Shown: one piece after another, positions 12,425 through 30,075 of the stretch | How the letters are laid out: every line of letters starts with the position of its first letter | Position numbering within the stretch: the first letter of the stretch is position 1 | Assembly: GCF_001457615.1 (NCBI RefSeq) | Contig: NZ_LN831024.1 | Span: 30,001 to 62,000, forward strand | Source of the DNA: Pseudomonas aeruginosa | GTDB lineage: Bacteria; Pseudomonadota; Gammaproteobacteria; Pseudomonadales; Pseudomonadaceae | Reading direction: 5' to 3' | DNA length: 32,000 nt | Notes under the pieces: generated by a model | The model's database searches: none | Seen by the model: only the letters and a program-made list of their open reading frames with translations | Told to the model about the DNA's origin: nothing | Program-made: the position numbers and the translations under genes

Positions 12425-13324
12425 ATGGACATCCGCAGCCCGCTGAACCAGTGCATCGCCCTGTCCCTGGCCGGCATCCTGTTCCTCAACCCGATCGTCG
12501 CCGCGGCGGCGGGGCTGGCGCTGGACAAGGCCGCCGGCGGCAACACCGGCCTGGGCCAGGCGGGCAACGGCGTGCCCGTCGTCAATATCGCCACGCCCAA
12601 CGGCGCCGGGCTGTCGAACAACCATTTCCGCGACTACAACGTCGGCGCCAACGGGCTGATCCTCAACAACGCCACCGGCAAGACCCAGGGTACCCAGCTC
12701 GGCGGGATCATCCTCGGCAACCCCAACCTCAAGGGCCAGGCGGCGCAGGTGATCCTCAACCAGGTCACCGGCGGCAACCGCAGCACCCTGGCCGGCTACA
12801 CCGAGGTGGCCGGGCAGTCGGCGCGGGTGATCGTCGCCAACCCGCACGGCATCACCTGCCAGGGCTGCGGCTTCATCAACACGCCGCGCGCGACCCTCAC
12901 CACCGGCAAGCCGATCATGGACGGCCAGCGCCTGGAGCGCTTCCAGGTGGACGGCGGCGACATCGTCGTCGAAGGCGCCGAACTGAACGTCGGCAACCTC
13001 GAACAGTTCGACCTGATCACCCGCAGCGCCAAGCTCAACGCCAAGCTCTACGCGAAGAACCTCAACATCGTCACCGGCCGCAACGACGTCCAGGCCGACA
13101 GCCTGCAGGCCACGCCGCGCGCCGCCGATGGCAGCGAGAAGCCGCAGCTGGCGATCGACAGCTCGGCGCTGGGCGGGATGTACGCCGGGGCGATCCGCCT
13201 GGTCGGCACCGAGCAGGGCGTGGGGGTGCGGCTGGCCGGCGACATGGCCGCCAGCGGCGGCGACATCCGCATCGACGCCAGCGGCAAGCTGAGCCTGGCC
13301 CAGGCCTCCAGCCAGGGCGACCTG
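12425..13324 (+). other. CdiA signal peptide + TPS (haemagglutination activity) secretion domain
   Basis: [25 protein letters not shown]...[20 protein letters not shown]...[18 protein letters not shown] are the hallmark NPNL/NPNGI-type TPS motifs. Boundaries are approximate. Confidence 0.8.
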
Positions 13325-16300
13325 AAGATCGCGGCCCAGGCCGTGGAGCTGAATGGCAAGACCTACGCCGGCGGCAGCGCCGAGATCCGCAGCGCGGAGG
13401 AACTGGTCAACCGGCAGAGCCTGGCGGCGCGCGAACGCATCGCGCTGGAGGCGGCGCATATCGACAACGCCGGGGTGATCGAAGCCGGCGTCGAGCCAGA
13501 CGAGCGGCGCAACGCGCGCGGCGACCTCGAGCTGCGCAGCGGCACCCTGCGCAACGCCGGCAGCCTGGTGGCCAGCCGCGCGCTGGAAGCGAAGGCGAGC
13601 CAGGCGCTGGACAACCAGGGCGGCAGCCTGAAGGGGGCGACCGTCCGGGTCGACGCCGGGCACCTGGACAACCGTGGCGGCAAGCTGCTCGCCGAGGGCG
13701 AACTGCGGGTCGAGGCGAGCAGCCTGGACAACCGCCAGGACGGCCTGTTGCAGAGCCGGGACCGCGCCGTGGTCAAGACCCGTGGCGATCTCGACAACCG
13801 TGGCGGCCAGGTGATCGGCCTGAACGACCTGGAGGTCGGCGCGGCGACGCTCGACAACGGCCAGCAAGGCCTGCTCGGCAGCCAGCAGTCCACCCGCGTC
13901 AGCGCCCAGGCGCTGGTCAACCGGGGAGACGGCGAAGTCTCCGGCAAGCGCGTCGAGGCCCGCGTCGGCAGCCTCGACAATCGCGGCGGCAAGCTGATCG
14001 GCGACGACCTGCTGGTGGTCGCCAGCGGTGCCATCGACAACCGCCTCGGCTTGTTCTCCGCGGCCAACCGCCTCGACCTGCGGGCGCGCAGCCTGGACAA
14101 CAGCGGCAAGGGCACGCTGAGCAGCCGGGGCGGCCTGGAGGTCAGCCTCGGCGGCCTGCTGGACAACCGCGATGAAGGCAACCTGCTCAGCCAGGGCGCG
14201 CAGCGCGTGACGGTGGGGCAACTGGACAACCGCGCCGGCGGCCTGCTGTCGAGCCGCAGCGAGTTGAACGTCCACGGCGCCAGCCTGGACAACCGTGGCG
14301 GCGTGCTGGTGGCCGACGCCGGCCTGAGCGCCACGGGAGGCGCCTTCGACAACCGCGACGGCGGCAGCGCCAGCGGCAAGGCTGGCGTGCGCGTGGAGGT
14401 CGCCAGCCTGCGCAACGACCAGGGTGGCAAGCTGCTCAGCGATGGCCGCCTGGACCTCGCAGCGAACGCCGTCGGCAACGCCGGAGGGCGTATCGCCGCC
14501 AAGGGCGACCTGCAGGCGACGCTTGGCAGCCTGGCCCAGCAAGGTGGCGAACTGGTCAGCGAAAAGACCCTGAAGGTCGCGGCCGACACGCTCGACAACA
14601 GCCAGTCCGGGCTGATCGCCGCGAATGGCGGCATCGCTATCGAGGCGCGGCAGGTCGACAACCGCGCCGGCGAGATTTCCAGCACCTCGAAGGTCGCCGT
14701 GAACGCCCGCGAGCAACTGGACAACCGCGGCGGCAAGGTTATCGGCGACAGCGGCCTGCGCCTCACCGTGCAGCGCCTGCTGAACCAGGCCAAGGGGGTG
14801 CTGGCCGGGCGCGACGGCCTGAGCCTGGACGGCGGCGAACTGTTCAACGGCGACGGCGGGCGGCTCGACAGCCAGAACAGCCTGAGCGTGAGCCTCGGCG
14901 GCGTGCTGGACAACCAGGGCGGCAGGCTGCTCAGCGATGCCGGCGTGACGCTGAAGGGCGCCAGCCTCGACAACAGCCGTTCCGGCGTGATCAGCGCCAA
15001 GGGTGCGGTGGATATCCGCACCGGCGTGCTGGACAACAGCCGCAACGGCGGCATCGGCAGCAACGCCGGCATCACCCTGGTGGCCGCCCGGCTGGACAAC
15101 GGCCAGCAGGGCCGGGTCAGCGCCAAGGGCCTGCTCGACGCCAACCTGAAAGGCCTCGACCAGCGCGGAGGCGGCGTCCTGGTCAGCGAAACCGGCGTCA
15201 CCCTCGACCTCAATGGCGGCACACTGGTCAACCGCGACGGCGGCCTGATCGCTACGCCCGGCGCGCTGCTGCTGCGCCAGCTCGGCGCGGTGGACAACGG
15301 CGCCGGCGGGGAAATCTCCAGCGACCGCGCCTTCACCCTCGCCGCCGCCAGCCTGGACAACCGCGGCGGGCGCCTGATCGGCGCCGCCAGCCTGACCCTG
15401 CGCATCGCCCAGGCCCTGGACAACAGCCTGGCCGGGGTGATCTCCGGCGCCGCCGGCCTGGACATCGCGGCCGCTCGCCTGGACAACAGCGCCAAGGGCA
15501 CCCTGGCCAGCCGCGCCGGCATCGACCTGCGCGTCGACGGCGCGCTGGACAACCACGCCGAAGGCACCGTTTCCGGCGCCCGCCTGACGCTCGCCAGCGC
15601 CTCGCTGGACAACAGCGGCAAGGGCCTGCTCTCCGGCAACGCCGGCCTGACCGTCGTCACTGGCGCGCTGGACAACGCCGAGGGTGGCCAACTGATCAGC
15701 CAGGGCGTGCTGGACGTCAGCAGCGCCGACCTCGACAACCGTGGCGGCGCCCTCAGTGGCAAGCAGTCGCTGCGCCTGAGCGCCGCCAACCTGGACAACC
15801 GTGGCGGCCTGCTGACCAGCGACGGCGAACTGGAACTGACGGCAGGGCGCGTCGACTCCGCCGACGGCGGCGAAATCTCCGCCCGGGGCGACCTGCGCCT
15901 GACGGTCGAGCGCCTGGTGCAACGCCAGGGCCGGCTGATCGGCGAGCGCGGCGTCAGTCTCGACCTGCGGGGTGGCGACCTGGATAACCAGGGCGGCCTG
16001 ATCAGTGCCCGCGGCCCGCTGAGCATCGAGCGGCTGAACGTCCTCGACAACCGCCAGGGCGGCGAGATTTCCAGCCAGCAGGGCTTCGAGCTGCTGGCCA
16101 GGCGCATCGACAACGGCCAGCAGGGGCGCATCATCAGCGCCGGGAAACTGCGCCTGGACGCCGACGCGCTGGGCAACGCCGGCGCCGGCCTGCTCTCCGG
16201 ATGGCAGGGCCTGACGGTGACAGGCGGGAGCCTGGACAACAGCGCCGGCGGCACCCTTTCGAGCAAGGACGGCGAGCTGGCCATCAGCCTCGGCGGCGCG

Positions 16301-19300
16301 CTGGACAACCACGGCCAGGGCGCCCTGGTCAGCAAGGGCGCGCAACGGATCGACGCCGCCAGCCTGGATAACGCCCAGGGCATTGTCTCCGGCGAAAGCG
16401 ACGTGACCCTGAGCATCGCCGGGAAGCTGGACAACGGCCAGGGCGGCCTGGTCTCGGCGCAGCGCGCGCTGAGCTTCGAGCGCGACGATACGCTGCTGAA
16501 CAACGCCGGCGGCCGGATCAACGGCGGCAGCCTGCTGCTCAAGGGCGCCAGCCTGGATAACAGCGACGGCCAGTTGATCAGCCAGGGCCGGCTCGACGCC
16601 ATCCTTGGCGGCGCCCTGGTCAACGCCGGCGCGGCGCGCCTGGCCAGCGGCGGCGACCTGCTGCTGCGCAGCGCCAGCGTCGACAACCGCGGCGGCAAGC
16701 TGGTCAGCCAGGGGCTGCTGGAGATCAGCGCCGGCAGCCTCGACAACAGCGCCTCCGGCACCCTCGCCAGCCAGGCCGGCATGAGCCTGCGCCTGGGCGG
16801 CGGCGCCCTGCGCAACCAGCAGGACGGCCTGATCTTCAGCCAGGCCGGCGCCCTCGAGGTGCAGGCCGGCAGCCTGGACAACCGCCAGGGCACGCTCCAG
16901 GCCCAGGGCGACAACCAGCTGCGTATCGGTGGCGCGCTGGACAACCAGGGCGGCCGCCTGGACAGCCGGGCCGGTAACCTCGACCTGCAGAGCGGCAGCC
17001 TCGACAACGGCGCCGGCGGCGTGCTCAACAGCGCCAAGGGTTGGCTGAAGCTGGTCACCGGGCTGTTCGACAACAGCGCCGGCGTCACCCAGGCGCAGTC
17101 GCTGGAAATCCGCGCCGGGCAAGGCGTGCGCAACCAGCAGGGCCATCTCTCGGCGCTGGGCGGCGACAACCGCATCGTCACCGCCGACTTCGACAACCAG
17201 GGCGGCGGCCTCTACGCCAGCGGCCTGCTCAGCCTCGACGGCCAGCGCTTCCTCAACCAGGGCGCGGCGGCGGGTCAGGGCGGCAAGGTCGGCGCCGGGC
17301 GCATCGACTTCAGCCTGGCCGGCGCGCTGGCCAACCGCTTCGGCCAGTTGGAAAGCGAAAGCGAGCTGCACCTGCGCGCCGCCGCGATCGACAACAGCGG
17401 CGGCAGCCTGCGCGCCCTCGGCCGCAGCGGCAGCACGCGGCTGGTCGCTGGCGGCCTGAACAACGCCTACGGCGTGCTGGAAAGCGCCAACCAGGACCTC
17501 GACCTGCAACTGGGCAGCCTGGCCAACGCCGGCGGGCGCATCCTCCACACCGGCAACGGCACCTTCGGCCTGGATTCCGGGCAGGTGATCCGCGCCGGCG
17601 GCGAACTGACCACCAATGGCCTGCTGGACATCCGCGCCAGCGAATGGACCAACAGCAGCGTGCTGCAAGCCGGACGCCTGAACCTGGACATCGGCACCTT
17701 CCGCCAGACGGCCGAGGGCAAGCTGCTGGCGGTGCAGTCCTTCACTGGCCGCGGCGGCGACTGGAGCAACGACGGCCTGCTGGCCAGCGACGGCAGCTTG
17801 CGACTCGAGCTGAGCGGCGGCTACCGTGGCAACGGCCGCGCCACCAGCCTCGGCGACTTCGCCCTGAACGCCGCCAGCCTCGACCTCGGCAACGCCGCCA
17901 GCCTCGCCGGCGGCGCCAATGTCACGCTCGGCGCCGGCAACCTGCTGGTCAACCGTGGGCGGATCACCGCCGCCGGCGACCTCGTGGCCAGCGCCGCGAG
18001 CCTGAACAACTACGGCACCCTGGGCGGCGGCGGCAACCTGCGATTGAACGCGCCCGCCCTGCTCAACGAGCGCGGGTTGCTGTTCAGTGGCGCCGACATG
18101 ACCCTGCGCGCCGGCGACATCACCAACCTCTACGGGGATGTGTACAGCCTCGGCAGGCTGGATATCGCCCGCGACGATGCCGGCAACCGTGCCGCCAGCC
18201 TGCGCAACCTTTCCGGGGTGATCGAGAGCGGCAAGGACTTCAGCCTGCGTGCCAGCCTGATCGAGAACCGTCGCGCCGTGCTGGAAAGCAAGTCGGGCCT
18301 GTACACCGCGAAGATGGAGCAGACCGCCTGCATCGAAGGCGTCAACGCGGGCGACTGCAGCGGCAAGCGCAACGCCATCTGGACCATCACCCAGCGCGAC
18401 AAGACCGAGGTCACCGCCAGCAGCGCCATGGGGCAACTGCTGGCCGGAGGCGACTTCGCCATCGACGGCGGCACCCTGAACAACCTTTCCAGCCTGATCG
18501 GCAGCGGCGGCAACCTCACCGCCAACCTCGAAGTCCTCGACAACCAGGGCCTGGAAACCGGCGAGCTGGAAACCATCCGCGTGCTGCGTACCGCTCGCGG
18601 CGGCGATATCGGCGGCATCGATCAGAAGTCGCGCAACTTCACCAACCTCTACTGGTACCAGAGCGCCAATTTCGACCCGGCGCGCGCGGGCGAGATCCCC
18701 GCCGCGCTCAACGCGATCCTCAGCGACTGGTCCTTCGAGTACGAATTCCCGAGCAAGGGGCCGACCCCGATCAGCAGTGGCGACCAGTCCTACGCAGCGG
18801 TGATCCAGGCCGCCGGCGACGTCACGGTCAATGCCAGCACGCGCATCGACAACGGCGTCACCCGCCCCGGCTACACCTTCGTCGGCAGCGGCCGCCAGGT
18901 GGGCGACAGCGCGGTGGGCGGCAGCGGGGTTTCGGTGGTCGTGCCGCTGACCTCGCAACTGCCGCCCGACCTGGCGCGGCGCCAGGTCAACCCGGTTACC
19001 CTGCCCGGCTTCAGCCTGCCCCAGGGTGACAACGGCCTGTTCCGTCTCAGCTCGCGCTTCGCCGAGGACGGCAATGGCAGCGCCGCGCTCGGTGCCGGCG
19101 CCGACCGCACCCAGGGCGGCAGCGGCGTCTCGGTCGGCCAGCAAGGCGCCGGCAACGTCGCCGGTACCTGGCAGGGCCAGGGCGTGCGAGTCGACGGCCT
19201 GGCTGGCGCGGCCAACGTCCAGGGTCAGGGCGGCAGCACGCTCGGCGGTAGCCTGCCGGGCGTCGCCCGGGTCCAGGGCGTGCCCGGCAACGCCACGCCG

Positions 19301-22300
19301 AGCGCCAGCCACAAGTACCTGATCGAGACCAACCCGGCGCTCACCGAACTGAAGCAGTTCCTCAACTCGGACTACCTGCTCAGCGGCCTGGGCATGAACC
19401 CGGACGCTAGCAAGAAGCGCCTCGGCGACGGTCTCTACGAGCAGCGGCTGATCCGCGACGCGGTGGTGGCGCGCACCGGCCAGCGCTACATCGATGGGCT
19501 GAGCAGCGACGAGGCGCTGTTCCGCTACCTGATGGACAACGCCATCGCTTACAAGGACCAACTGCACCTGCAACTGGGTGTGGGTCTGAGCGCGGAGCAG
19601 ATGGCGGCGCTGACCCACGACATCGTGTGGCTGGAAGAGGTCGAGGTGAACGGCGAGAAGGTCCTCGCGCCGGTGGTCTACCTGGCCCAGGCGGAGGGTC
19701 GGCTGGCACCCAACGGTGCGCTGATCCAGGGCCGCGACGTGAAGCTGGTGAGCGGCGGCGACCTGCATAACGTCGGCACCCTGCGCGCGCGGAACGACCT
19801 CTCGGCGACGGCCGACAACCTCGACAACAGCGGCCTGATCGAGGCCGGCAAGCGCCTCGACCTGCTCGCCGGCGACTCGATCCGCAACCGCCAGGGCGGG
19901 GTCATCGCCGGGCGTGACGTGAGCCTCACCGCGCTGACCGGCGACGTGATCAACGAACGCAGCGTGACCCGCTACGACAGCGCGCTCGACGGCCGCACCT
20001 GGGAGCGCAGCTTCGCCGACAGCGCCGCGCGGGTGGAGGCGGCGAACAGCCTGAACGTCCAGGCCGGACGCGACATCGCCAACCTCGGCGGGGTGCTGCA
20101 GAGTCGCGGCGACCTCAGCCTCGACGCCGGACGCGACGTCACCGTCGCCGCCGTCGAGGACCGCCAGGGCCAGACCCGCTGGAGCACGTCGCGGCTACAG
20201 AGCGTGACCCAGCTCGGCGCCGAAGTCAGTGCCGGGCGGGACCTGAACGTCAGCGCCGGGCGCGACCTCAGCGCAGTGGCCAGCGCCCTCGAAGCGCGCC
20301 GCGACATCGCCCTCTCCGCCGGGCGCGACGTGACCCTGGCGGCGGCGGCGAACGAGGAGCATGCCTACAGCAAGACCAGGAAGGTCACCTACCAGGAAGA
20401 CAAGGTCGCCCAGCAAGGCACCCGCGTGGACGCCGGCGGCGACCTGGCGATCAATGCCGGACAGGACCTGCGCCTGATCGCGAGCCAGGCCAGCGCCGGC
20501 GACGAGGCCTACCTGGTGGCCGGCGACAAGCTGGAACTGCTGGCCGCCAACGACAGCAACTACTACCTGTACGACAAGAAGAAGAAAGGCGACTTCGGCC
20601 GCAAGGAAACCCGGCGCGACGAAGTCACCGACGTCAAGGCGGTGGGCAGCCAGATCAGCAGCGGCGGCGACCTCACCCTGCTCAGCGGCGGCGACCAGAC
20701 CTACCAGGGCGCGAAGCTGGAATCGGGCAACGACCTGGCCATCGTCAGCGGCGGCGCGGTGACCTTCGACGCGGTGAAGGACCTGCACCAGGAGAGCCAC
20801 GAGAAGAGCAAGGGCGACCTGGCGTGGCAGTCGTCGAAGGGCAAGGGCCAGACCGACGAAACCGTGCGCCAGAGCCAGATCGTGGCCCAGGGGAATCTGG
20901 CGATCAAGGCCGTGGAAGGGCTGAAGATCGACCTCAAGCATATCGACCAGAAGACCGTGAGCCAGACCATCGACGCGATGGTGCAGGCGGATCCGCAACT
21001 GGCGTGGCTGAAGGAGGCCGAGCAGCGCGGGGATGTGGACTGGCGCATGGTGCAGGAGGTGCACGATAGCTGGAAGTACAGCAACTCGGGGTTGGGGGCT
21101 GCGCCGTCACTGGCCATTGCCATCGTTGCAGCTGCTTACCTCGGCCCGGTGTATGGCGCAATGGCCAGCAACCTCGCCATTGGCACCATCAACAATGGCG
21201 GTGACCTTGGCAAGGGGCTGCAACAGGCCACCAGCGCTGACAGTCTGAAAGGGTACGCCATCGCAGCGGCCACGGCTTATCTCGTCAGCCCGCAGTTGGA
21301 CAAGGCATTCGGCGTATCCAGTGACAACATCAACAAAGTCACCAAAGGATTCAAGCTCAGCACAGTTGAGGGAATCGGTGGATTTGCTGCCTACAGCATT
21401 GCCCAAGGCTTTGCTCAATCGGTCATGCAGCAGGCCGCCTATGGCGGCAGCTACATCGACAACCTCGGTAATGCCATGGCAGGTCAGGCGCGCAACCTGG
21501 GAATGGCGGTAGGTTTCAATTTCATTGGCGACTCGGTCAAATACCCTGATGGCAGCCCGCCGAAAATCATGGCTCACGCCCTGATGGGAGGTCTGCTGGC
21601 CGAAGCCTCCGGCAGTGACTTCAAGACTGGAGCGGCGGCCGCTGGTGCCAACGAGGCCATGATCAACCTCCTTGGGAAAATGGTAGGTGGCGATCAAAAC
21701 CTCGAACTGATGGCCTCGCAACTCGTTGGCGTAGCCGCGGCAAGTGCGGTCAATGGCGATGTGAGTCTGGGCGCCGAGATCGCCAAAAGCGGGACGGCGT
21801 ACAACCGGCAGCTACACCCAGATGAAATCAAATTCGCATCGGATGTGGAGCGCGTCAAACGTTATGCCCAGGAAAATGGGCTGAGCGAGGACACCGCCCG
21901 CAAAGAGCTTCTCAGCACGGCCGCCATGATGGTGGACAATGGCTGGAACCAGGCCTTGGCCGGCACAGACATCAACGCTGCCCGGGCTGCTCAGTATCTG
22001 CGTACGGAGCTGGGCACAGGCCCGGACAGCAATCTCTTCCAGGTGACCCAGGCTGACTACTACAACGAGCGGGTGGGGCTGACGGCGCTATTCAAGAACA
22101 AGGAGGCCCTGACCAGCGTTCTGGAAAACATAGCCCTAGCGAATCCCGCGAGCTATACGAGGGACCCCGCGAACCGTGCGGAAGTGCTGAATGCCAAAGG
22201 TGAAGGTAGCCAAGCGGGCTTTGGGCTGGCACTGGAAGGGATCGTCAGCGCGCCTTCAAAAACTGCCTTGTGGTTGATGGGTGCGCTAACCTGTTCAAGC

Positions 22301-22867
22301 TGTGCGGAGCGGGATATCCAGAACGCTTGGAACTCGGTTGCCTCGTTACCTGAAGACATCCGTATGAAAGGCTATCTGGATGCCTTGCACACCATGCAAG
22401 GCCAGGGTGCCAGCGTGGTGCGGGACAACGCCGCGAGTTCGACTGCATTGGGAGTTGAGGTTGGGCTGGCCATTGATGGAGGGTTGGCAGGGGCAGGCAA
22501 GGGCGTCGTTACGGATGGTCCGAAAGGAATACTTACACTGAAAGATTTTCCTGATGTCTCTACCAAGATAAGCCAGAAGCAGCTTCGCCATATTGCTGGA
22601 ACACAGCAGCTTGAGGCACGGGGAGGCGGTGGTTTCTTAAACAGTGTCTCTGATGCTCAAAAAGTGCTTGATGCCTACCATACCGGCCAAGTGAAAATCC
22701 TAGGGAGAAATGCTCAGGGATTCCCAGTAGTCAAGTTTGAGGGCGTTACTGGAACTAACGTTAATCTCGGTGTTGGTATAACTGATCAGGCAACCAATGT
22801 ATTTATTATCAAGGGCACAAAGAGTCCAAGTATTGTCCCTACAAATCCAAACTGGAGTCCCAAATGA
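12425..22867 (+). CDS. cdiA: Contact-dependent inhibition exoprotein CdiA (TpsA filamentous haemagglutinin-like), 3480 aa
   Basis: AAGGAG RBS. N-terminal signal and TPS domain with NPNL and NPHGI motifs, long beta-helical repeat tracts, a central non-repeat region ([12 protein letters not shown]...), GRD-rich FHA-2-like repeats, a DAMV motif, a Gly/Ala-rich pretoxin region and a divergent AT-richer C-terminus. It sits immediately after cdiB and before a small overlapping ORF. Confidence 0.95.
13400..18100 (+). repeat. FHA-1-type degenerate ~20-residue beta-helix repeats inside cdiA
   Basis: Dozens of imperfect repeats built on xSLDNRGGxLxxxxxLxLxA (LDNRGG, LDNSxxG, LDNGQQG). They explain the long stop-free antisense and off-frame ORFs. 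Boundaries are approximate. Confidence 0.8.
19725..20790 (+). repeat. FHA-2-type repeats inside cdiA (GRD/GGD-rich)
   Basis: Recurrent AGRDV/AGRDL/SGGDL segments ([73 protein letters not shown]). Boundaries are approximate. Confidence 0.7.
20972..20983 (+). other. DAMV motif (aa 2850-2853), which I recall as the conserved/variable boundary of P. aeruginosa CdiA
   Basis: The codons GAC GCG ATG GTG are in frame ([16 protein letters not shown]). Third-position G/C bias relaxes about 80-100 nt downstream, at about 21060-21100. Confidence 0.6.
21806..22864 (+). other. CdiA-CT region (353 aa after a VENN-equivalent ...[11 protein letters not shown]|RQLHPDE junction): putative entry domain + ~120-aa terminal toxin domain
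   Basis: [15 protein letters not shown] aligns by eye with the GAQAGKNAVENNxL / (Q/E)LYN pretoxin junctions of other CdiA proteins. The last ~120 aa (from about nt 22500) are markedly AT-richer and end ...[71 protein letters not shown]. Confidence 0.6.
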
Positions 22868-23181
22868 GTAGCCAGCCAACGTTGGAAGAATGGAATTTTC
22901 AAGTGTTAATGCTAATTCAAGCGTTGGTAGGTGCGATATCTGCCAATTTTAGAATGATTGCATTGTTATGGGATGGCGATGAGTGGGTATTGAGATTTTA
23001 TCTTGAAGAGAGCAACGAAGAGGACGTTGAGGAGATTGAGGATGTTGTTTGCCAATATACGGCATATCAGGGCTCTAGTTTGAGATGCAGGTCTGAGTTG
23101 ATCGTGGGGCGTGAACGCCTTCCGGGGCTTTCGGAGGTGGGTAGGGTTGTATACCGTCGCAGAGAGTCTTTTGATATTTAG
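22864..23181 (+). CDS. cdiI: Cognate CdiI immunity protein (105 aa, acidic)
   Basis: Its ATG overlaps the cdiA stop as ATGA (22864..22867). It is small and AT-rich, with an acidic stretch ([15 protein letters not shown]). The position is canonical for cdiI. I recognise no family. Confidence 0.75.
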
Positions 23182-23333
23182 TTGGGGCAAAAGGTAGCTC
23201 CGGCGCAGAAAGTGCTATCAATCAAGGCAGGCTTAATTCTCAGCTCCTGTCTGAGGAGGTTGCGAATGGCCACGCGTTCCAGAAACATTTAGTCGAACGG
23301 CAAGAGTTTGTTGATCTTGCGCCAACAGCATAA
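23175..23333 (+). pseudogene. Orphan toxin 5' fragment (...GAKGSSGAESAINQGRLNSQLLSEEVANGHAFQKHLVERQEFVDLAPTA*), cut by the RAYT element
   Basis: An open frame with no start codon begins right after cdiI. The sequence LxxEExANGHAFxKHxxxxxEF resembles the N-termini of nuclease-type polymorphic toxin domains (from memory). The stop TAA is supplied by the first bases of the repeat at 23331/23332. Confidence 0.4.
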
Positions 23334-24126
23334 AGGGGACAGATTTATTTTCCCTACTCTAATTTTCTAAGCAGGGAGGCTCCAGTGCAGACGCCGTAAG
23401 GAGGCTCCGCGATGCCTAGGCAAGGGCGAGTGGTTTTACCGAATTATCCGCTTCACGTGGTCCAGCGGGGACACAATCGGCAAGTGGTATTCGCCGAGGA
23501 CGAGGACTACCAGCGTTACCTCTCCGATCTACGGGACCTCAAGGATGCCTTTGGTATCAAGGTCTACGCATTTTGCCTGATGACCAACCATGTCCATCTG
23601 CTCTTGGCGCCTGGTGATTCGCTGTCTGGCTTGGCGCAACTGATGAAAACGCTGGCGGCGCGCACGACACGATATCGGAATCGCTTGGAGGGCCGTTCCG
23701 GAACGTTGTGGGAAAGTCGCTATAAATCGAGTGTCGTACAGAGCGATGCCTACCTGCTGGCGTGTTGCCGGTACATCGAACTGAACCCTGTTCGGGCGCG
23801 GATGGTGGACGATGTGGCGGCCTATCCCTGGTCAAGTTATGGGCTGCGGGCGGATTGGTTGAAGGAGCCAAACTGGTTGGATATGGATTCCTGCTTCATT
23901 GAGCTAGGTCAGACGGCCGAAGAGAGATATCGGCGATACGTAACGTTCATGAAAGAGGCGATACCGGCCGAGGAATTGAGGCTGATTCGCGAGGCGGTTC
24001 AGCGTGGACAACTGACGGGCAATCAACGGTTCGTGGACGAGATCGAGCGGGTAGCCGGGGTGAGAATAGAGCGGCGTGGGCAAGGGCGGCCGAGATTAGA
24101 GCAGGGAAAATAAATCTGTCCCCTTT
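23332..24126 (+). mobile_element. RAYT unit: REP-associated tyrosine transposase gene flanked by ~33-bp inverted repeats
   Basis: Left end AAAGGGGACAGATTTATTTTCCCTACTCTAATT (23332..23364). Right end ATTAGAGCAGGGAAAATAAATCTGTCCCCTTT (24095..24126) is its near-perfect inverted copy. The RAYT stop codon lies inside the right repeat. An extra half-repeat AGTCCCCTTTTTT lies at 24141..24153. Confidence 0.8.
23412..24113 (+). CDS. REP-associated tyrosine transposase (RAYT; IS200/IS605-like Y1 HUH transposase family)
   Basis: 233 aa. Motifs: HVVQRGHNRQVVF, the HUH motif in FCLMTNHVHLLL, and the catalytic Tyr context GTLWESRYKS, as in TnpA-REP/COG1943 proteins. Flanked by inverted repeats. Confidence 0.85.
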   Translation: MPRQGRVVLPNYPLHVVQRGHNRQVVFAEDEDYQRYLSDLRDLKDAFGIKVYAFCLMTNHVHLLLAPGDSLSGLAQLMKTLAARTTRYRNRLEGRSGTLWESRYKSSVVQSDAYLLACCRYIELNPVRARMVDDVAAYPWSSYGLRADWLKEPNWLDMDSCFIELGQTAEERYRRYVTFMKEAIPAEELRLIREAVQRGQLTGNQRFVDEIERVAGVRIERRGQGRPRLEQGK

Positions 24127-24135
24127 TTTCTTTTT

Positions 24136-24231
24136 TTCTTAGTCCCCTTTTTTCTTACATTACCAGACGGACGGGCTGCTAGTTGGGGTGGGGATGGTAA
24201 ATTTATTGGGTTTAGAGGCGTGCAAAAATGA
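24136..24231 (+). pseudogene. Possible 3' tail of a deleted orphan toxin (...LPDGRAASWGGDGKFIGFRGVQK*)
   Basis: A short open frame with no start runs from the RAYT right end. Its TGA (24229..24231) overlaps the ATG of the next ORF as ATGA, the same junction as cdiA/cdiI. Confidence 0.3.
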
Positions 24232-24473
24232 AGGTAAATTTGATTTTTGAAAAAGTTGGAGATGTTAATAGTGATTATCCATATCTTTGTGTATATAAGG
24301 AGGGGGAGAGAGAGCCTTTTATGGAGATATCAGTGAGTAAAGAAAGAAAGATTGAGTTTGTTTTTTATTCTAGAGCTGATAATTTTTCCCTAAGCTCTGA
24401 AGAGTTCTATGAAATATATGGTAGGGCGGAAGCTTTTTTGCCTCAAGCTTTAGAAAATGAAGATTCGCTGTAA
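24228..24473 (+). CDS. Orphan immunity-like small protein (81 aa)
   Basis: Intact AT-rich ORF (MKVNLIFEKVGDVNSDYPYLCVYKEGEREPFMEISV...) with an ATGA junction to the upstream toxin-tail remnant. No family recognised. Confidence 0.45.
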   Translation: MKVNLIFEKVGDVNSDYPYLCVYKEGEREPFMEISVSKERKIEFVFYSRADNFSLSSEEFYEIYGRAEAFLPQALENEDSL

Positions 24474-24598
24474 TATTTAAATAAAGAGACTGGTTATAAT
24501 GGGGATTTTTATTTTCCTGACTCTAGTGTTATCCGGCGGCAAATATGATTTCGATACTTTGATTTCAGAGAAATCCTCAAAGTTTTAGTTGAAAGAAT

Positions 24599-24779
24599 AA
24601 AGGGGCAGATTTATTTTCTCTACTCTAATTTCGGCGACGGCGCCCACGCCGAACTACTCAAAGAAAATAACTCGTTAAACCATGCGCCCTTACCAAGGCA
24701 TCACGAAGTTCCTTTACGGCATCTGCACTGGAGCCTTTGCTCAGAAGATTAGAGTAGAGAAAGTAAATCTTTCCCCTTT
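24599..24779 (-). mobile_element. MITE/REPIN-like internal-deletion derivative of the RAYT unit (copy 1, inverted)
   Basis: The ends AAAGGGGCAGATTTATTTTCTCTACTCTAATT and AGATTAGAGTAGAGAAAGTAAATCTTTCCCCTTT form an inverted pair. The interior is homologous to the RAYT 5' leader with its first ~13 codons, joined to the last ~60 nt of the RAYT unit. Confidence 0.75.
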
Positions 24780-24958
24780 CAATGTTGTTTCAAGAGAAGA
24801 CTGTGGTCAGCAAAGAGCCCACGGAAGCTTAGGATGTGGTTCGGATGGAAGGGCGGCTCCGCACGAGCATAAAATTGAATATAACGAAAGGGCTATGTAA
24901 GAAGAAATAGGCTCGGATGGAAAGCCGGTAGGCCCTTGGATACCAGATAGGTGATTAA

Positions 24959-25114
24959 ATGTCTAATGATGTATGTGGGTATATAAAATATGATGGTGTT
25001 TATCCGGAGTCAGATCTGCTTGAGTATTTGTCAAAAAGTGAGCTAGGTGTTTTTAGAGTTCCAAAGGAGCATCTATATCGAATGAAAGGGACAGATTTAT
25101 TTTCTCTACTCTAA
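24959..25114 (+). pseudogene. Possible orphan immunity-like ORF, 3'-truncated by MITE copy 2
   Basis: AT-rich ORF MSNDVCGYIKYDGVYPESDLLEYLSKSELGVFRVPKEHLYRM.... Its last ~9 codons and its stop are read from the MITE starting at 25085. It is below the ORF-track cutoff and I translated it by hand. Confidence 0.25.
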
Positions 25115-25249
25115 ATTTTCTGAGCATGGAGGCTCCAGCGCAGATGCCGTAAAGGAACTTCGCGATGCCTAGCGAATTATTTGCTTTGAGCGTTTCAGAG
25201 TGGGCGCAGTCGCCGAAATTAGAGTAGTAAAAATAAATCTGTCCCCTTT
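25085..25249 (+). mobile_element. MITE/REPIN-like internal-deletion derivative of the RAYT unit (copy 2)
   Basis: AAAGGGACAGATTTATTTTCTCTACTCTAAATTTTCTGAGCATGGAGGCTCCAGCGCAGATGCCGTAAAGGAACTTCGCGATGCCTAG... ...GTCGCCGAAATTAGAGTAGTAAAAATAAATCTGTCCCCTTT. It shares the deletion junction (after CGAATTAT / CGAGTTAT) with copy 1, is in the opposite orientation, and is clearly diverged from it. Confidence 0.75.
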
Positions 25250-25250
25250 T

Positions 25251-25559
25251 TTACAAGGGAGTGCTATAACGGGGCAGAGTTTCAAGACTGGACAAGCGTT
25301 TGACGTTGGTAGGGTGAGTGACTTCGATATTGCCTTGGCAGGCCCTGAGTTGTTGCAGCGTGCACAGCCGCTAGGAATAGGTTTGAGAAGCGGCGGTACT
25401 CGTACTGGTCCTCTGAGCGGAAGAGATTTGCAAGCACTTGGATTAAAAGATCTAGCTAGAAAGCTAAGTGCACAAGCAGGGCGTGAAGTTAACTTTATGA
25501 TTTATGATTCTGCGGCAACGGCTGCAAGCCGCGCTCCGAGCTTGGTACTTCCAAAATGA
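25251..25559 (+). pseudogene. Orphan cdiA-CT-like toxin fragment with a Pol-beta nucleotidyltransferase-like G-S...D-x-D signature
   Basis: The native sequence starts exactly at the MITE copy 2 end: LQGSAITGQSFKTGQAFDVGRVSDFDIALAGPELLQRAQPLGIGLRSGGTRTGPLSGRDLQALGLKDLARKLSAQAGREVNFMIYDSAATAASRAPSLVLPK*. The track ORF's first 17 codons, including its GTG start at 25200, are MITE sequence. Its stop overlaps the next ATG as ATGA. Confidence 0.45.
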
Positions 25560-25876
25560 TTGCATATGACTTGTACGGAACGAAAAATCTCAGCCTTTTG
25601 CTGGCAAGAGAGCATATAGAGAAAATTTTTGGAGTGCCTCTTGATGAAAGAAATAGTTCTTATCAAGGAGGGGATTACTACATGTTTGGTAGTAATGATT
25701 CGGAGAATTTTATTCTGAAAGCCAATCTTGACCCTCTTGATGATGAACCAGTAGAGTTAAATTTTCCTGACTACCCTATTTTGCTCTATATAAACGCCAC
25801 GACACGTTCATCTGCTATAGAAGGGGTAATCAAGAAGGGTGCATGCTTTAAGCTGCTCAGGCATGAAATGTTCTAG
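25556..25876 (+). CDS. Orphan immunity-like protein (106 aa) paired with the preceding toxin fragment
   Basis: Intact AT-rich ORF with an ATGA overlap at 25556..25559: MIAYDLYGTKNLSLLLAREHIEKIFGVPLDERNSSYQGGDYYMFGSNDSENFILKANLDPLDDEPVELNFPDYPILLYINA.... No family recognised. Confidence 0.55.
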   Translation: MIAYDLYGTKNLSLLLAREHIEKIFGVPLDERNSSYQGGDYYMFGSNDSENFILKANLDPLDDEPVELNFPDYPILLYINATTRSSAIEGVIKKGACFKLLRHEMF

Positions 25877-25888
25877 GAATGAAAGAAC

Positions 25889-25903
25889 AAAGGGGACAGA
25901 TTT
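25889..25903 (+). repeat. Solo copy of the RAYT-end repeat core
   Basis: AAAGGGGACAGATTT is identical to the first 15 nt of the left repeat at 23332. The similarity is lost after that. Confidence 0.6.
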
Positions 25904-25985
25904 GAATGGCACTTACTTAACCCTTTTCGGATGACCGTGTTTCTTGATCGCTGCCCGAGCAGATTGACGTGTACAGGTCAGTAAT

Positions 25986-26015
25986 CAGCATAAAGGGGAC
26001 CAGCATAAAGGGGAC
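25986..26015 (+). repeat. Tandem duplication of CAGCATAAAGGGGAC at the left end of the second RAYT copy
   Basis: CAGCATAAAGGGGAC occurs twice in direct tandem (25986..26000 and 26001..26015). The same 15-mer precedes the intact RAYT at 23326..23340. Confidence 0.7.
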
Positions 26016-26086
26016 TGATTTATTTTCCCTACTCTAATTTTCTAAGCAAGGAGGCTCCAGCGCAGACGCCGTAAGGAGGCTCCGCG

Positions 26087-26283
26087 ATGCCTAGGCAAGG
26101 GCGAGTGGTTTACCGAATTATCCGCTTCACATGGTCCAGCGGGGACACAGTCGCCAAGTGGTATTCGCCGAGGACGAGGACTACCAACGCTACCTCTCCG
26201 ATCCTCAAGACCTCGAGGATGCCTTCGATAACAAGCTCCATGCATTTTGCCGAATGGCCACCCATATCCATCTGCTCCTGGCG
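26087..26283 (+). pseudogene. Degenerate RAYT copy (frameshifted, 3'-truncated) marking the right edge of the AT-rich region
   Basis: The left repeat (26007..26039), leader and first ~65 codons are homologous to 23332..23610. A 1-nt deletion (GTGGTTT-ACC versus GTGGTTTTACC) shifts the frame. Homology ends after ...HIHLLLA at about 26283, where GC-rich core sequence resumes. Confidence 0.8.
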
Positions 26284-26462
26284 GCTTGCCGACCCTCCTT
26301 TCTACTGCCCCGTCGCACAGCGCCCCAATGTACTAGTACACCGGAAACCGCCGTCTCCCGTTGAACGGGCGGGCCCCGGCCCCCTACCATTCGCAGCACA
26401 CCGACCCGCGCAAAGGGAGCGGGATGCCGCGTAGGCAGGCCGCCATGGAAGGAGAAGCACAT

Positions 26463-26858
26463 ATGCCGGTACTGGCTCTGAGACTCACCGCCCTGGCGGC
26501 CCTTGCGATCAGCGTGTCGGGGTGCGTCATGGAGGCCTATGGCAGTCGCGCGCGTAGCGATGCGCAATCCTGGATCGGCTTGCCGATCCAGGACGTGATC
26601 AAGCGCTTCGGCGAGCCGGAACGCGTGACGGGGGATGCCGCCAGGCAGAAGTACGTGTGGAAGGAGTACGAGAACTATAGCCACGACTACGACTACACCT
26701 ACTACGAGCAGGGCCATGGCAATACGCCCAACAGCTCGGTCCTGAACCAGAAGACCGGCACGGCCAACCAGAGCGGCTATTACACCTGCATCTACGAGTT
26801 CTTTGCCGACGCCTCGGGCAGGGTGGTCGATGCGACCGCGCGGGGTGAGTGCCGCTAG
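26463..26858 (+). CDS. Small lipoprotein of unknown function
   Basis: ATG at 26463 after GGAGAA. Signal peptide and lipobox MPVLALRLTALAALAISVSG|C. 131 aa. The longer track ORF from 26361 is an unsupported 5' extension. Confidence 0.7.
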   Translation: MPVLALRLTALAALAISVSGCVMEAYGSRARSDAQSWIGLPIQDVIKRFGEPERVTGDAARQKYVWKEYENYSHDYDYTYYEQGHGNTPNSSVLNQKTGTANQSGYYTCIYEFFADASGRVVDATARGECR

Positions 26859-27128
26859 TTCCAGGCGCCCTTCACGCCGCAAAGGGCGATTGGCTCAGCC
26901 AGCCACCGCCTTGTCTCCGACGTCGCAGAGACGCCTCAGTCCAACGCGGAGGCGTCCCCTCCCCTCGCTCCGCCGTGATCGCCAGGCCGCCCTGCCTCAC
27001 CCGGGTCCTGGTCCGGTCCTTGGCCTTGAAACCCGGCCGTTGCAGCCAGTAGCCGCGCAGGTTGATGCGGGGCGCCAGGCGGTTGTCGTCGCGTTCGTCC
27101 AGCGGCGCTCCGAGGTTTCCCCGGCGCC

Positions 27129-28382
27129 TCACAGCAGGATCAGCAGCGCTCCTACCAGCAGCCCCGCCAGGCTGAAGGGTAGCGTTTGCAGGGCCAGCCG
27201 CTTGCCGCCCACCAGCACGACCAGGCCGGCCTTGACCAGGCTGTTGCTCAGGGCGGCAAGGGCGATGCCGCGGCTGGCCACGCCTGGATCGAGTTCGCCC
27301 TGCGCCGCGCGGGCCAGGGACAGGGTGATCGCGTCGACGTCGGCGAGGCCGGAGAGCAACGCGACCGCGTAGATGCCGGCATCGCCGAACAGCCGCCGGC
27401 CGACCTCCACCAACAGCAGGATCGCGCTCAGCAGGGCGGCGAAACGCAGGGCCGGGAGCAGTTCGAAGGGGTTGCGCAGGCCTGGCTCGTCGGGTGCCTC
27501 CTGGCTGGCGCGGCCGCCGCGCAGGGCGTGGAACAGCGTGCCGCCAAGGTAGACGAGGGTGGTGGCGGCGAATGGCAGGGCCAGCTCCTTCAGCAAGGCC
27601 GGGTGGATCGCGCCGATCTCGACGAGGATGCGCGGGAACATCAGCGCCGAGGTCGCCAGCAGGGCGCACGCCAACAGGGCGTCGGGCATGCGCTCGCGCA
27701 GGCGCGCCAGGGTCAGGGTCATCACCGTGGAGGACACCAGGCCGCCGAGCACCGCGGTCAGCAACAGGCCCTTGCGCGAGCCGATCAGGCGGATGGCCAG
27801 GTAGGCGGAGAAACCGAGGGCGGCGATCAGCACCACCATCCACCAGGTCAGGTAGGGATTGAAGAACGCCCAGGGACCATAGCCCTGGTTGGGCAGCACC
27901 GGCAGCAGGACCACGGAAATGAACAGCAGCTTGAGGGTGCCCGATAGCTCCTCGGCGGTCAGGCGCTTCAGCAGGGCGTGGAGCTTGTCCTTGAGGCTCA
28001 GCAGCAGGGTCAGCACGATGCCGCCGGCGGCAGCCAGCAGGCGCTGTTCGGTGAGGGCGAGGCTGCCGAGGAGGAAGGTCATCAGCAGGGCGATCTCGGT
28101 GGTCATGCCCTGGTCGCCGCCACGCCTGACATCGCTCACGTAGCCGGCCACGGCCAGCGCCGCGAGGGCCAGCAGCAAGGCTACCCAGACCGCGCTGCCC
28201 AGTTCGCCCGCGAGCAGGGTGGCGAAGCCGCCGAGCAGGCCGGCCAGGCTGAAGGTGCGGATTCCGGCGATCTGCCGCGCATCTTCGTGGTCGCGCTCCT
28301 GCCAGCCGCGCTCGGCGCCGATCAGAAGGCCGATGGCCAGGGCCGTGCACAGGCTCAACAACAGATCCAGGGAAAGCGTCAT
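27129..28382 (-). CDS. MgtC/SapB-family + DUF4010 integral membrane protein
   Basis: About 417 aa and highly hydrophobic. The N-terminus MTLSLDLLLSLCTALAIGLLIGAERGWQER... is typical of the MgtC/DUF4010 family. The start is chosen at the second of two close ATGs (alternative at 28394). The upstream part of the 469-aa track ORF has no coding character. Confidence 0.75.
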   Translation of the reverse strand: MTLSLDLLLSLCTALAIGLLIGAERGWQERDHEDARQIAGIRTFSLAGLLGGFATLLAGELGSAVWVALLLALAALAVAGYVSDVRRGGDQGMTTEIALLMTFLLGSLALTEQRLLAAAGGIVLTLLLSLKDKLHALLKRLTAEELSGTLKLLFISVVLLPVLPNQGYGPWAFFNPYLTWWMVVLIAALGFSAYLAIRLIGSRKGLLLTAVLGGLVSSTVMTLTLARLRERMPDALLACALLATSALMFPRILVEIGAIHPALLKELALPFAATTLVYLGGTLFHALRGGRASQEAPDEPGLRNPFELLPALRFAALLSAILLLVEVGRRLFGDAGIYAVALLSGLADVDAITLSLARAAQGELDPGVASRGIALAALSNSLVKAGLVVLVGGKRLALQTLPFSLAGLLVGALLILL

Positions 28383-28618
28383 GCTCGATTCCATTCGCCG
28401 GGAGAGAGGATGGCGACGTGCCTGTGCGCACCATAGCAGCAGACGACCCCGAGGTGCCTGCACGGCGGTGCGCCGTCCACCAAGAGCCCGTCGCTGCCGC
28501 CGATATCCATCGGGTTCTCCGCCCCGGTGTAGGCGCACGGGAGCTGGCGTAGGGAAAGTCCGCTGTTTTTCGGCCGCTGACGGTTCTCTTTCCGCGTGCT
28601 CCGACGGCCGCCAACAGT

Positions 28619-28701: not shown

Positions 28702-30075
28702 ATGCATATTCAATCATCTCAGCAGAACCCGTCTTTCGTGGCTGAGTTGAGCCAGGCCGTGGCCGGGCGCCTGGGACAGGTCGAGGCCCGCCAGGTGGCC
28801 ACTCCCCGGGAGGCGCAACAACTGGCCCAGCGCCAGGAAGCACCGAAGGGCGAGGGCCTGCTCTCCCGCCTGGGGGCCGCCCTCGCGCGTCCCTTCGTGG
28901 CGATCATCGAGTGGCTGGGCAAACTGCTGGGGAGCCGTGCCCACGCCTCCACCCAGGCGCCGCTCTCCCGTCAGGACGCGCCGCCTGCCGCCAGTCTCTC
29001 GGCCGCCGAGATCAAGCAGATGATGCTGCAAAAGGCACTGCCCCTGACCTTGGGCGGACTTGGCAAGGCGAGCGAGCTGGCGACTTTGACAGCGGAGAGA
29101 CTGGCGAAGGATCACACGCGCCTGGCCAGCGGCGACGGCGCCCTGCGCTCGCTGGCCACCGCCCTGGTCGGGATTCGCGATGGCAGCCGGATCGAGGCTT
29201 CCCGTACCCAGGCTGCCCGCCTGCTCGAACAGAGCGTTGGGGGGATCGCGCTGCAACAGTGGGGGACCGCGGGCGGTGCCGCCAGCCAGCATGTACTCAG
29301 CGCAAGCCCGGAGCAACTGCGCGAAATCGCCGTCCAACTGCATGCGGTAATGGACAAGGTCGCCCTGTTGCGCCACGCGGTAGAGAGCGAGGTAAAGGGC
29401 GAGCCTGTCGACAAGGCGCTGGCGGATGGCCTGGTGGAGCACTTCGGGCTGGAGGCGGAGCAGTACCTAGGCGAACACCCGGACGGGCCGTACAGCGATG
29501 CCGAGGTGATGGCGCTCGGTCTCTATACCAACGGCGAGTACCAGCACCTGAATCGTTCCCTGCGTCAGGGGCGAGAGCTGGATGCTGGCCAGGCGTTGAT
29601 CGACCGGGGCATGTCTGCCGCGTTCGAAAAGAGCGGACCGGCTGAACAGGTCGTGAAGACCTTCCGCGGCACCCAGGGCAGGGATGCCTTCGAGGCGGTG
29701 AAAGAGGGCCAGGTCGGCCACGACGCCGGCTATCTCTCCACCTCCCGGGACCCCAGCGTTGCCAGGAGCTTCGCGGGCCAGGGCACGATAACCACCCTGT
29801 TCGGCAGATCCGGGATCGATGTCAGCGAGATATCGATCGAGGGCGATGAGCAGGAGATCCTCTACAACAAGGGGACCGACATGCGCGTGCTTCTCAGCGC
29901 CAAGGATGGGCAGGGTGTGACCCGTCGGGTGCTCGAAGAGGCCACGCTGGGGGAACGGAGCGGCCACGGCGAGGGACTGCTCGATGCCCTGGACCTGGCA
30001 ACCGGGACGGATCGTTCAGGCAAGCCCCAGGAACAGGACCTGCGCCTGAGAATGCGCGGCCTCGACCTGGCCTGA
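28702..30075 (+). CDS. exoT: Type III secretion effector ExoT (RhoGAP + ADP-ribosyltransferase)
   Basis: 457 aa. The N-terminus MHIQSSQQNPSFVAELSQAVAGRLGQVEARQVA... matches ExoT as I remember it. GAP arginine context GDGALRSLATAL. ADPRT motifs FRGT, YLSTS and GDEQEILY (E-x-E). Confidence 0.95.
   Translation: MHIQSSQQNPSFVAELSQAVAGRLGQVEARQVATPREAQQLAQRQEAPKGEGLLSRLGAALARPFVAIIEWLGKLLGSRAHASTQAPLSRQDAPPAASLSAAEIKQMMLQKALPLTLGGLGKASELATLTAERLAKDHTRLASGDGALRSLATALVGIRDGSRIEASRTQAARLLEQSVGGIALQQWGTAGGAASQHVLSASPEQLREIAVQLHAVMDKVALLRHAVESEVKGEPVDKALADGLVEHFGLEAEQYLGEHPDGPYSDAEVMALGLYTNGEYQHLNRSLRQGRELDAGQALIDRGMSAAFEKSGPAEQVVKTFRGTQGRDAFEAVKEGQVGHDAGYLSTSRDPSVARSFAGQGTITTLFGRSGIDVSEISIEGDEQEILYNKGTDMRVLLSAKDGQGVTRRVLEEATLGERSGHGEGLLDALDLATGTDRSGKPQEQDLRLRMRGLDLA

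Follow-up and report, generated by a model that had tools for sequence, protein, structure and literature searches.

A TIRYT-class element and its miniature derivatives in the orphan toxin/immunity array behind a Pseudomonas aeruginosa cdiA gene

The DNA described here, the window, is a 32,000-nt segment of the Pseudomonas aeruginosa chromosome, and this paper concerns a stretch of about 3 kb within it that lies behind cdiA and cdiI, the toxin and immunity genes of a contact-dependent inhibition (CDI) system. The stretch is an array of orphan toxin/immunity modules interspersed with one intact transposable element, two gene-less miniatures of this element and several partial copies. The transposase is a Y1 HUH enzyme under strong purifying selection, its clade is found behind the polymorphic-toxin genes of many species in a single orientation, and the modules of different strains break at the ends of the element. 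We consider it probable, at roughly 0.6, that this element, a TIRtron, and its gene-less derivatives reside inside polymorphic-toxin loci, where their co-oriented copies are the sites of module truncation, swapping and stacking. TIRYT elements and orphan toxin/immunity arrays are both already known; judged by the literature searched, the linkage between them is apparently new.

Anatomy and class of the element

The array is marked by a 32-nt repeat (AAAGGGGACAGATTTATTTTCYCTACTCTAAT), seven copies of which are present in the window at up to three mismatches (at 23332, 24598, 25084 and 26007 on the forward strand, and at 24095, 24748 and 25218 on the reverse strand). The number expected by chance is 0 (0 matches in 100 shuffles), and at the same threshold the remainder of the 32-kb window contains no copy. 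A preliminary description of this DNA had reported four to five copies of an end repeat within 3 kb. The repeat is genuine, but the count was too low, as there are seven full copies and partial ones besides. The copies of the element are:

23332..24126, forward strand: intact autonomous element (TIRtron), consisting of the left repeat (23332-23363), a leader, the transposase open reading frame (ORF) and the right repeat (24095-24126)
23412..24113, forward strand: TIRYT transposase gene, 233 aa
24142..24156, reverse strand: partial extra right terminus (GTCCCCTTTTTTCTT), a nested-end footprint
24497..24529, forward strand: decayed left repeat (70% identity), about 25 nt past an immunity stop codon
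24599..24779, reverse strand: non-autonomous miniature A, in the opposite orientation to the others; long hairpin, z = -6.3
25085..25249, forward strand: miniature non-autonomous element B; hairpin, z = -6.6
25889..25903, forward strand: solo left terminus, 15 nt
25987..26286, forward strand: duplicated terminus (CAGCATAAAGGGGAC, twice; extra left terminus at 25987-26001), followed by a frameshifted, truncated transposase copy

The arms of the intact element are 32 nt long, can be extended to 40 nt and are 90% complementary. The stop codon of the transposase lies inside the right repeat, with which the end of the ORF overlaps at 24095-24113. The usual TAG is replaced by CAG in the window copy, so that the protein has 233 residues instead of 230 and the right repeat has its one mismatch. 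Copies of the whole element that are 98 - 100% identical are found in other P. aeruginosa arrays. The last copy (26007-26286) had been described as a decayed transposase, which it is: it shares about 91% identity with the full element, has a 1-nt deletion and ends where the G+C-rich core flank begins. An exact-protein look-up of its truncated ORF returned no record. The junction between the array and the core is kept in other strains (window positions 26001-27000 correspond to L002 and L003 at 96.6 - 97.2%; L numbers denote the loci that were compared), and the presence of the element at this locus is therefore old. A better-preserved homolog of the decayed left end at 24497..24529 is found in L224.

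In miniatures A and B, about 100 nt from the left end, comprising the leader, the ATG and the first codons, are fused to about 50 nt from the right end. When A, B and ten miniatures of other strains (12 in all) are aligned, they have a single internal junction in common and pairwise identities of 75 - 99%, so that the miniatures represent an old propagated family. A secondary 17-nt deletion is common to B and one copy in another strain, and 13 of the 14 miniatures that could be oriented are co-oriented. Both elements (24599-24779 and 25085-25249) have the properties of miniature inverted-repeat transposable elements (MITEs), being short and non-coding, having the terminal repeats of the parent and an internal deletion, and existing in several diverged copies. 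Their earlier interpretation as propagated, diverged internal-deletion derivatives with a single junction thus agrees with the alignment. No target-site duplication was found at the miniatures in the form of direct repeats of flanking DNA; the only duplications are those of the element's own terminus. The long miniatures of P. aeruginosa, derived from the gene, are the deletion product of a single lineage and represent no special 'genesis' stage. The suggestion that they capture REPINs in the making is not needed, because related species have shorter doublets of the same ends (39 - 100 nt) and bare 46-nt hairpins occur in metagenomes.

The 233-residue protein matches the Pfam family Y1_Tnp (7.8e-14). 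Its HUH motif, H60-V-H62, and the catalytic tyrosine, Tyr121, are invariant in an alignment of 27 homologs. The score against the NCBIfam model REP_Tyr_transpos (NF047646) is 75.5 bits, below the cutoff of 80, and the IS200 model NF033573 is clearly missed (27.8 bits against a cutoff of 55). A profile search of the Protein Data Bank (PDB) found IS200-type TnpA and, weakly, Escherichia coli TnpA-REP (4er8); a single-sequence phmmer search against the PDB found nothing. When a structure model of modest quality (pLDDT 61) was used in a fold search, TnpA-REP 4er8 was the best match, followed by the TnpA proteins of IS608 and ISDra2. About 90 residues past the Y1 domain are modelled as helices with low confidence, and no helix-turn-helix family of Pfam matches them even at E = 1.

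RAYT-like genes situated between long inverted repeats that share the motif GGGGWSAS were named TIRYT/TIRtron by Di Nocera et al. 2013 (PMC3733652). Quentin et al. 2018 (PMC6006769) equated TIRYT with their subclass 2.1, in which the protein is extended at the C-terminus by a part similar to a helix-turn-helix domain. The repeat of the window starts with AAAGGGGACAG, matching GGGGWSAS, and GGGGACAG, which fits this motif, is present in all of its copies. A single repeat folds no better than its shuffles (z = +0.47 and +1.31), whereas paired repeats, or doublets, fold as long hairpins with z between -5 and -10. The non-palindromic repeat, the long inverted repeats and the match to GGGGWSAS place the element in the TIRYT/TIRtron class and not among the classical RAYT/REPIN systems. 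Further features in common with TIRYTs are the RAYT-like Y1 HUH protein, long terminal inverted repeats in place of REPs, a protein made longer than RAYTs by a C-terminal extension, and repeats that occur also as dimers and in small families.

The preliminary description had called the gene an intact RAYT between a pair of repeats, with REP/REPIN partners. The Y1/HUH gene and the inverted repeats around it stand, but the RAYT label does not, since single repeats have z values of +0.5 and +1.3, the score of 75.5 bits is under the cutoff of 80 and the gene is multi-copy in the arrays. A classical domesticated RAYT, that is, a host gene in single copy that spreads short palindromic doublets through the genome from a home locus, would explain that the RAYT model is nearly reached, that the best fold match is 4er8, that the doublets fold like REPINs and occur as dispersed lone hairpins in metagenomes, and that genes of the sister clade are single-copy and syntenic. 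Nevertheless, we regard this explanation as very improbable. Apart from the absence of a palindrome in the single repeat and the score below the curated cutoff, up to three intact copies plus fragments are present per array, the repeats are locally clustered and confined to the array, and in P. aeruginosa the gene is accessory (the best 80 hits in the genome collection include no record titled P. aeruginosa).

Homologs of the transposase number in the thousands. The species sample consisted of the 80 closest relatives of the protein in data with one genome per species, and comprised 79 loci. In these loci the repeat core GGGGACAGATTTATTT flanks nearly every homolog, down to 58% amino acid identity in distant taxa, and in about 70 of the homologous loci the gene lies between long inverted repeats. 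Tight inverted doublets number 81 in 33 non-redundant loci and have lineage-specific sizes of 39 - 243 nt. On metagenome contigs (L097-L216, e.g. L122 at 8860-8920) the repeat core mostly forms lone, near-perfect hairpins of 46 - 80 nt, in which the outermost 2 - 6 variable bases are also inverted-repeated. The family at large thus behaves as a dispersed hairpin-repeat system. Seven viral contigs carry the bare repeat core and no transposase gene; one of them, from IMG/VR (L220, 3650-3861), has four cores in the same orientation, spaced by 50 - 80 nt. The element has no match among phage records. The only hit with 98% identity in the genome collection is on a 3463-nt contig (L018, CALLKG010000120.1) of a metagenome-assembled genome labelled Corynebacterium tuberculostearicum, which is most likely a bin contamination.

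The hairpins might be retained for a different purpose, as structural signals in RNA or DNA (terminators, mRNA stabilizers or insulators) that serve the orphan immunity genes, the transposase being incidental. A doublet is a long stem between an A-run and a T-run, which is the shape of a bidirectional terminator, and left repeats begin just past immunity stop codons. However, a terminator and promoter scan gave no excess over expectation, either in the region as a whole (five terminators against 4.0 expected) or at the doublets as such, and there are zero Rfam matches. Since an intact, selected transposase and the truncated toxins at the right ends are also left unexplained, this explanation is hardly credible.

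Linkage to polymorphic-toxin genes

In the species sample, 59 loci could be assessed, these being the loci with at least 5 kb of upstream sequence. A polymorphic-toxin gene lies upstream of the transposase in 33 of the 59, on the same strand in every case and on the opposite strand in none. The toxin genes of the 33 linked loci are mostly of the CdiA type, but type VI secretion (T6SS) islands with VgrG and Rhs loci are also represented. The order cdiA-cdiI-transposase is found in all three other species that were checked, and the additional transposase copies and fragments in the arrays are all co-oriented. Toxin-linked proteins form one clade in a neighbor-joining tree, and the sister of this clade comprises single-copy relatives in conserved core contexts, e.g. 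beside alginate lyase or fba. The value of omega is 0.04 - 0.10 in the 20 pairs with unsaturated dS, most pairs being saturated at synonymous sites; the toxin-linked clade is thus under strong long-term purifying selection.

The variety of the linked loci can be illustrated by a few cases. L044 and L055 are T6SS islands in which VgrG, DUF4123, effector and immunity-like genes are followed by two transposase copies. The upstream toxin of L072 carries Fil_haemagg/PT-HINT, L023 has upstream a cdiB fused to an EndoU remnant, and L083 and L085 (Nevskia and Solimonas) have RHS toxins with a small ORF. An RHS match upstream of the transposase in L069, which belongs to the core-syntenic group, was not counted (E = 0.13). 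In several arrays outside P. aeruginosa, small immunity-like ORFs separated by doublets lie behind cdiA (L021, 9230-14340; L008, 6700-8450; L030, 3400-14300; L072, 4700-11450). These arrays conflict with PMC4725963, where P. aeruginosa is given as the only species with orphan modules. Alongside the first TIRYT type, cdi arrays also contain a second one, which is about 41% identical and has its own repeat (AATAGGGGACAGACCACGTTTT) (L048, 7936-8622; L051, 7934-8626; L053, 5941-6618; fragments in L030 at 5200-5496 and 12384-12932). The earlier proposal of a Y1-enzyme-linked array of immunity cassettes accordingly stands, and it applies to dozens of species, with T6SS and Rhs loci included.

The exact P. 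aeruginosa protein belongs to a cluster of 1531 sequences on 282 contigs. Among the places listed for it, all are between cdiA and mgtC/exoT, often with two or three intact copies. Three matches are to records labelled 'plasmid'. One of them, NZ_CP116719.1, is a cdi orphan array, and the other two (1.8 - 2.6 kb) contain partial matches. The linear NZ_CP116719.1 record (L001, 1-24299) is an orphan array in its entirety, with DUF637, EndoU, deaminase, glutamine deamidase and nuclease cassettes, three transposase copies and at least eight miniatures; a segment of 1.8 kb is duplicated in it (16455-18300 and 22087-23930). It is probably an unplaced chromosomal fragment, and a plasmid or phage vector was rejected, there being zero matches to phage records.

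The linkage bears upon the simplest alternative, namely that the element is a selfish insertion sequence (IS) which, together with its MITEs, is tolerated in a dispensable, A+T-rich, horizontally acquired region, where the modules turn over by homologous recombination through the conserved cdiA alone. Decaying insertion sequences leave behind miniatures, nested ends and copies that are truncated or frameshifted, the G+C content of the array is low (32 - 50%, against 63 - 72% in its flanks), and IS-interrupted orphan cdiA-CT genes are known elsewhere (PMC3150448). Yet the same clade follows toxin genes in 33 species-level loci, in at least seven chromosomal contexts and always co-oriented, and no other copy of the clade is present in the neighborhoods examined. 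Long-term purifying selection on the transposase, a second type of TIRYT with 41% identity that is likewise found in cdi arrays, and strain differences that break at the element termini are further points against such an explanation, which we find rather doubtful.

Module boundaries and their possible origin

The array is headed by cdiA and cdiI and contains the following coding features in addition to the element copies:

12425..22867, forward strand: cdiA, 3480 aa, the contact-dependent inhibition toxin gene heading the array (from the ORF list)
22864..23181, forward strand: cdiI, 105 aa, immunity gene of the resident toxin (from the ORF list)
23190..23331, forward strand: short coding fragment whose function is not identified, possibly an orphan toxin piece (read from the sequence)
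24157..24473, forward strand: orphan cassette 1, consisting of the last codons of a toxin and an 81-aa immunity-like ORF (24228-24473)
24959..25084, forward strand: remnant of cassette 2, the start of a small ORF cut by element B (the ORF, 24959-25114, runs into the repeat)
25250..25876, forward strand: orphan cassette 3, consisting of the 3' part of a toxin (to 25559) and a 106-aa immunity-like ORF (25556-25876)

Homologous cdiA genes in other strains carry the Pfam domains TPS, Fil_haemagg and DUF637, and an identical copy of the 105-aa cdiI in other strains is marked by PF26541 MafI2. The cassette proteins of the window have zero matches in Pfam or NCBIfam, and this includes the ORF of the cassette 2 remnant; the exact cassette 3 protein is indexed in 723 blocks of the sequence collection. 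A TAA among the initial bases of the left repeat closes the frame of the 23190..23331 fragment. Beyond the array are core genes, an mgtC/DUF4010 gene (27129-28538) and a gene for a 457-aa YopE/ADP-ribosyltransferase toxin of the exoT/exoS type (28702-30075).

Comparison of strains shows that homology ends at the termini of the element. Window positions 22000-24132, which include the 23190..23331 fragment, form a 2133-nt block that is 100% identical in L002 and L003; homology reaches as far as the right end of the element, and past it the window and L002/L003 each have a different cassette. The resident toxin/immunity pair of the window is present in L002/L003 as an orphan. Conversely, the resident cdiA-CT/cdiI module of L224 and L231 is 93% identical to orphan cassette 1 of the window, and the homology of these two loci to the window, interrupted by their different resident toxin module, resumes exactly at the left repeat. 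Cassette 3 recurs, bounded by repeats, in L001 (97.9% identity), and has homologs in L021 and L030. Miniature B is 98.9% identical to L001 3778-3953, with different cassettes on both sides. That element boundaries are also cassette boundaries had been noticed in the window and is confirmed by these comparisons.

The two junctions of a module behave differently. In the cassette 3 family, the left repeat begins 10 - 17 nt after the immunity stop codon in all four loci (the window, L001, L021 and L030), and 10 - 25 nt when the 81-aa immunity gene is included. The right repeat cuts the toxin gene of cassette 3 at three positions, one per species, L001, which like the window is from P. aeruginosa, aligning with the window. 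The fixed 3' and variable 5' junctions define a module as right repeat, truncated toxin, immunity gene and left repeat. The doublets, on the other hand, are placed irregularly relative to ORF ends, at a median distance of 128 nt from the upstream stop, and a regular, attC-like placement after ORFs was rejected for this reason.

About 10 - 15% of 734 repeat ends have a direct duplication, 12 - 16 nt long, of their own outermost terminus; 72 of these are near-perfect. The duplications always end at GGGGAC, immediately before AGATTTATTT. Examples are found at 25987-26016 and, in partial form, at 24142-24156 of the window, and at 5740-5790 of L224, where three termini are nested. Judged from the sequences, these duplications may hint at breakage and joining right after GGGGAC.

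The events behind this architecture could have been as follows. The two ends of the element would pair into a long hairpin on one DNA strand, and the miniatures would be what remains of such a hairpin. Elements would insert directly after immunity genes and beside or inside the termini of older copies. A module would then close with the left repeat behind its immunity gene, and the next would open with a right repeat, by which its toxin gene is cut off at a point that varies, leaving a working immunity gene behind a dead toxin. Exchange between strains would take place at the elements, either through ordinary recombination of one copy with another or through the action of the transposase. A circle with one element and one module, recombining with a resident element, would give rise to co-oriented elements, to orphan modules that start from a right end and to the fixed junction behind the immunity gene. 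The elements would thus be the cause of the truncations and exchanges, and the enzyme is presumed active and predicted to cut just after GGGGAC. The translocatable units of IS26 show the same circle-type pattern of architecture.

Several points weigh against this proposal. Among the loci compared, neither a transposition event nor an empty site nor a target duplication was caught. All of the boundary patterns could also arise when near-identical copies recombine by way of RecA. The large elements are at least 98% identical, so that crossovers inside them are invisible, and the breakpoints were discarded as a test of recombination against site-specific exchange; with the present sequence data, either RecA or the transposase may be the joining agent. 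The linkage and its orientation may have been inherited with mobile cdi islands, in which case the 33 loci are not independent. The sample of 80 relatives is biased toward this clade, and the distribution of copies in P. aeruginosa was seen within neighborhoods of 12 - 20 kb and the 32-kb window only. Furthermore, on most metagenome contigs with the hairpin neither a transposase nor a toxin gene was detected (for toxins, 2 of 52 contigs of at least 5 kb, as judged by four queries), and the confidence of the structure model is modest (pLDDT 61).

A stronger version would make the TIRYT enzyme a dedicated cassette-capture machine, which excises and integrates repeat-bounded modules as single-stranded hairpins in an integron-like or rAID-like defense. 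It would account for the conserved linkage, orientation and purifying selection, for the hairpin doublets between cassettes, for the junction that is fixed across species at 10 - 25 nt after immunity genes, for terminal duplications that end precisely at GGGGAC, and for an identical miniature that recurs with both of its flanks different. However, the movement of cassettes by the enzyme is hypothetical, the doublets are irregular relative to ORF ends, and many cassettes are damaged pieces of toxins and not neat units. Relatives outside the clade are either single-copy genes in the core or tied to dispersed hairpins, like ordinary RAYT-type systems. This version is therefore quite unlikely. A related conjecture, advanced here tentatively and as rather improbable, is that one clade of HUH Y1 TIRYT enzymes may be the recombinase of a toxin/immunity cassette system, nicking the hairpin ends after GGGGAC, moving repeat-bounded modules behind CDI, T6SS and Rhs genes, and building orphan-immunity arrays on single-stranded DNA.

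Relation to known systems and significance

The TIRtrons of PMC3733652 and PMC6006769 have not been described in connection with toxin/immunity genes, whereas the present clade resides within loci of CDI, T6SS and Rhs. The present element also differs from them in being multi-copy in arrays, in its gene-derived miniatures and in its ends, which mark cassette boundaries. The RAYT-REP/REPIN systems (Nunvar 2010; PMC3116915; PMC5581495) belong to the same enzyme superfamily, supply the closest solved fold (4er8) and have non-autonomous hairpin doublets; the sister clade of the present element is, moreover, single-copy and syntenic. Unlike those systems, the unit repeat here is non-palindromic, the score remains under the curated cutoff, and the copies are multiple, clustered and accessory in P. 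aeruginosa. The 'Group 1' RAYTs of Bertels, which are widely distributed and have few flanking repeats, may correspond to the present element. In common with the IS200/IS605 elements IS608 and ISDra2, it has a Y1 transposase with HUH and Tyr motifs and probably uses DNA hairpins at its ends as the substrate, and its strict co-orientation is reminiscent of their strand-specific insertion. Those elements, however, are without terminal inverted repeats and have separate subterminal hairpins at their two ends, whereas the ends of the present element are inverted repeats.

Orphan cdiA-CT/cdiI arrays, consisting of truncated toxin 3' ends and intact immunity genes downstream of cdiBAI, are known from P. 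aeruginosa (PMC3150448, PMC4725963). In those accounts no recurring dedicated element is described, whereas here repeat-bearing arrays are found in many species. Poole et al. 2011 (PMC3150448) mentioned only occasional IS interruptions of orphan modules, and Mercy et al. 2016 (PMC4725963), who considered orphans limited to P. aeruginosa among Pseudomonas, did not mention transposases. The full-text literature searched contains no description of TIRYT, RAYT or IS200 elements linked to CDI, Rhs, orphan immunity genes or polymorphic toxins; Allen & Hauser 2019, which may mention these 'transposase' genes, is outside the coverage of that search.

The rAID arrays of Bacteroidales, integrons and IS26 units likewise consist of small cassettes split by a repeated site beside an enzyme that breaks and joins DNA, with co-oriented flanking repeats and a cassette content that varies between strains. 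The enzymes of rAIDs and integrons are tyrosine recombinases, and that of IS26 is a DDE transposase. In the present arrays the enzyme is of the HUH Y1 type, the cassettes are often damaged pieces of toxins, the placement of the repeats is irregular and the movement of cassettes by the enzyme is only hypothetical. No Int/Xer-type tyrosine recombinase is situated beside the array, in which the HUH Y1 protein is the only DNA enzyme. There is a real chance that this may be a new type of cassette system.

For CDI, Rhs and T6SS alike, it is debated in what way orphan toxin/immunity arrays come together and are reshuffled, and the usual answer is homologous recombination through the conserved toxin gene. 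A recurring, selected and orientation-locked element, the ends of which fall on module boundaries in many species and in three delivery systems, is a testable candidate for the downstream partner in this recombination, or even for its enzyme. The cleavage position predicted after GGGGAC can be tested with oligonucleotides, and the repeat core provides a simple marker for orphan immunity arrays that annotation pipelines miss. With this linkage, a poorly understood branch of the RAYT/IS200 superfamily, that of the TIRYTs, gains its first clear biological context.

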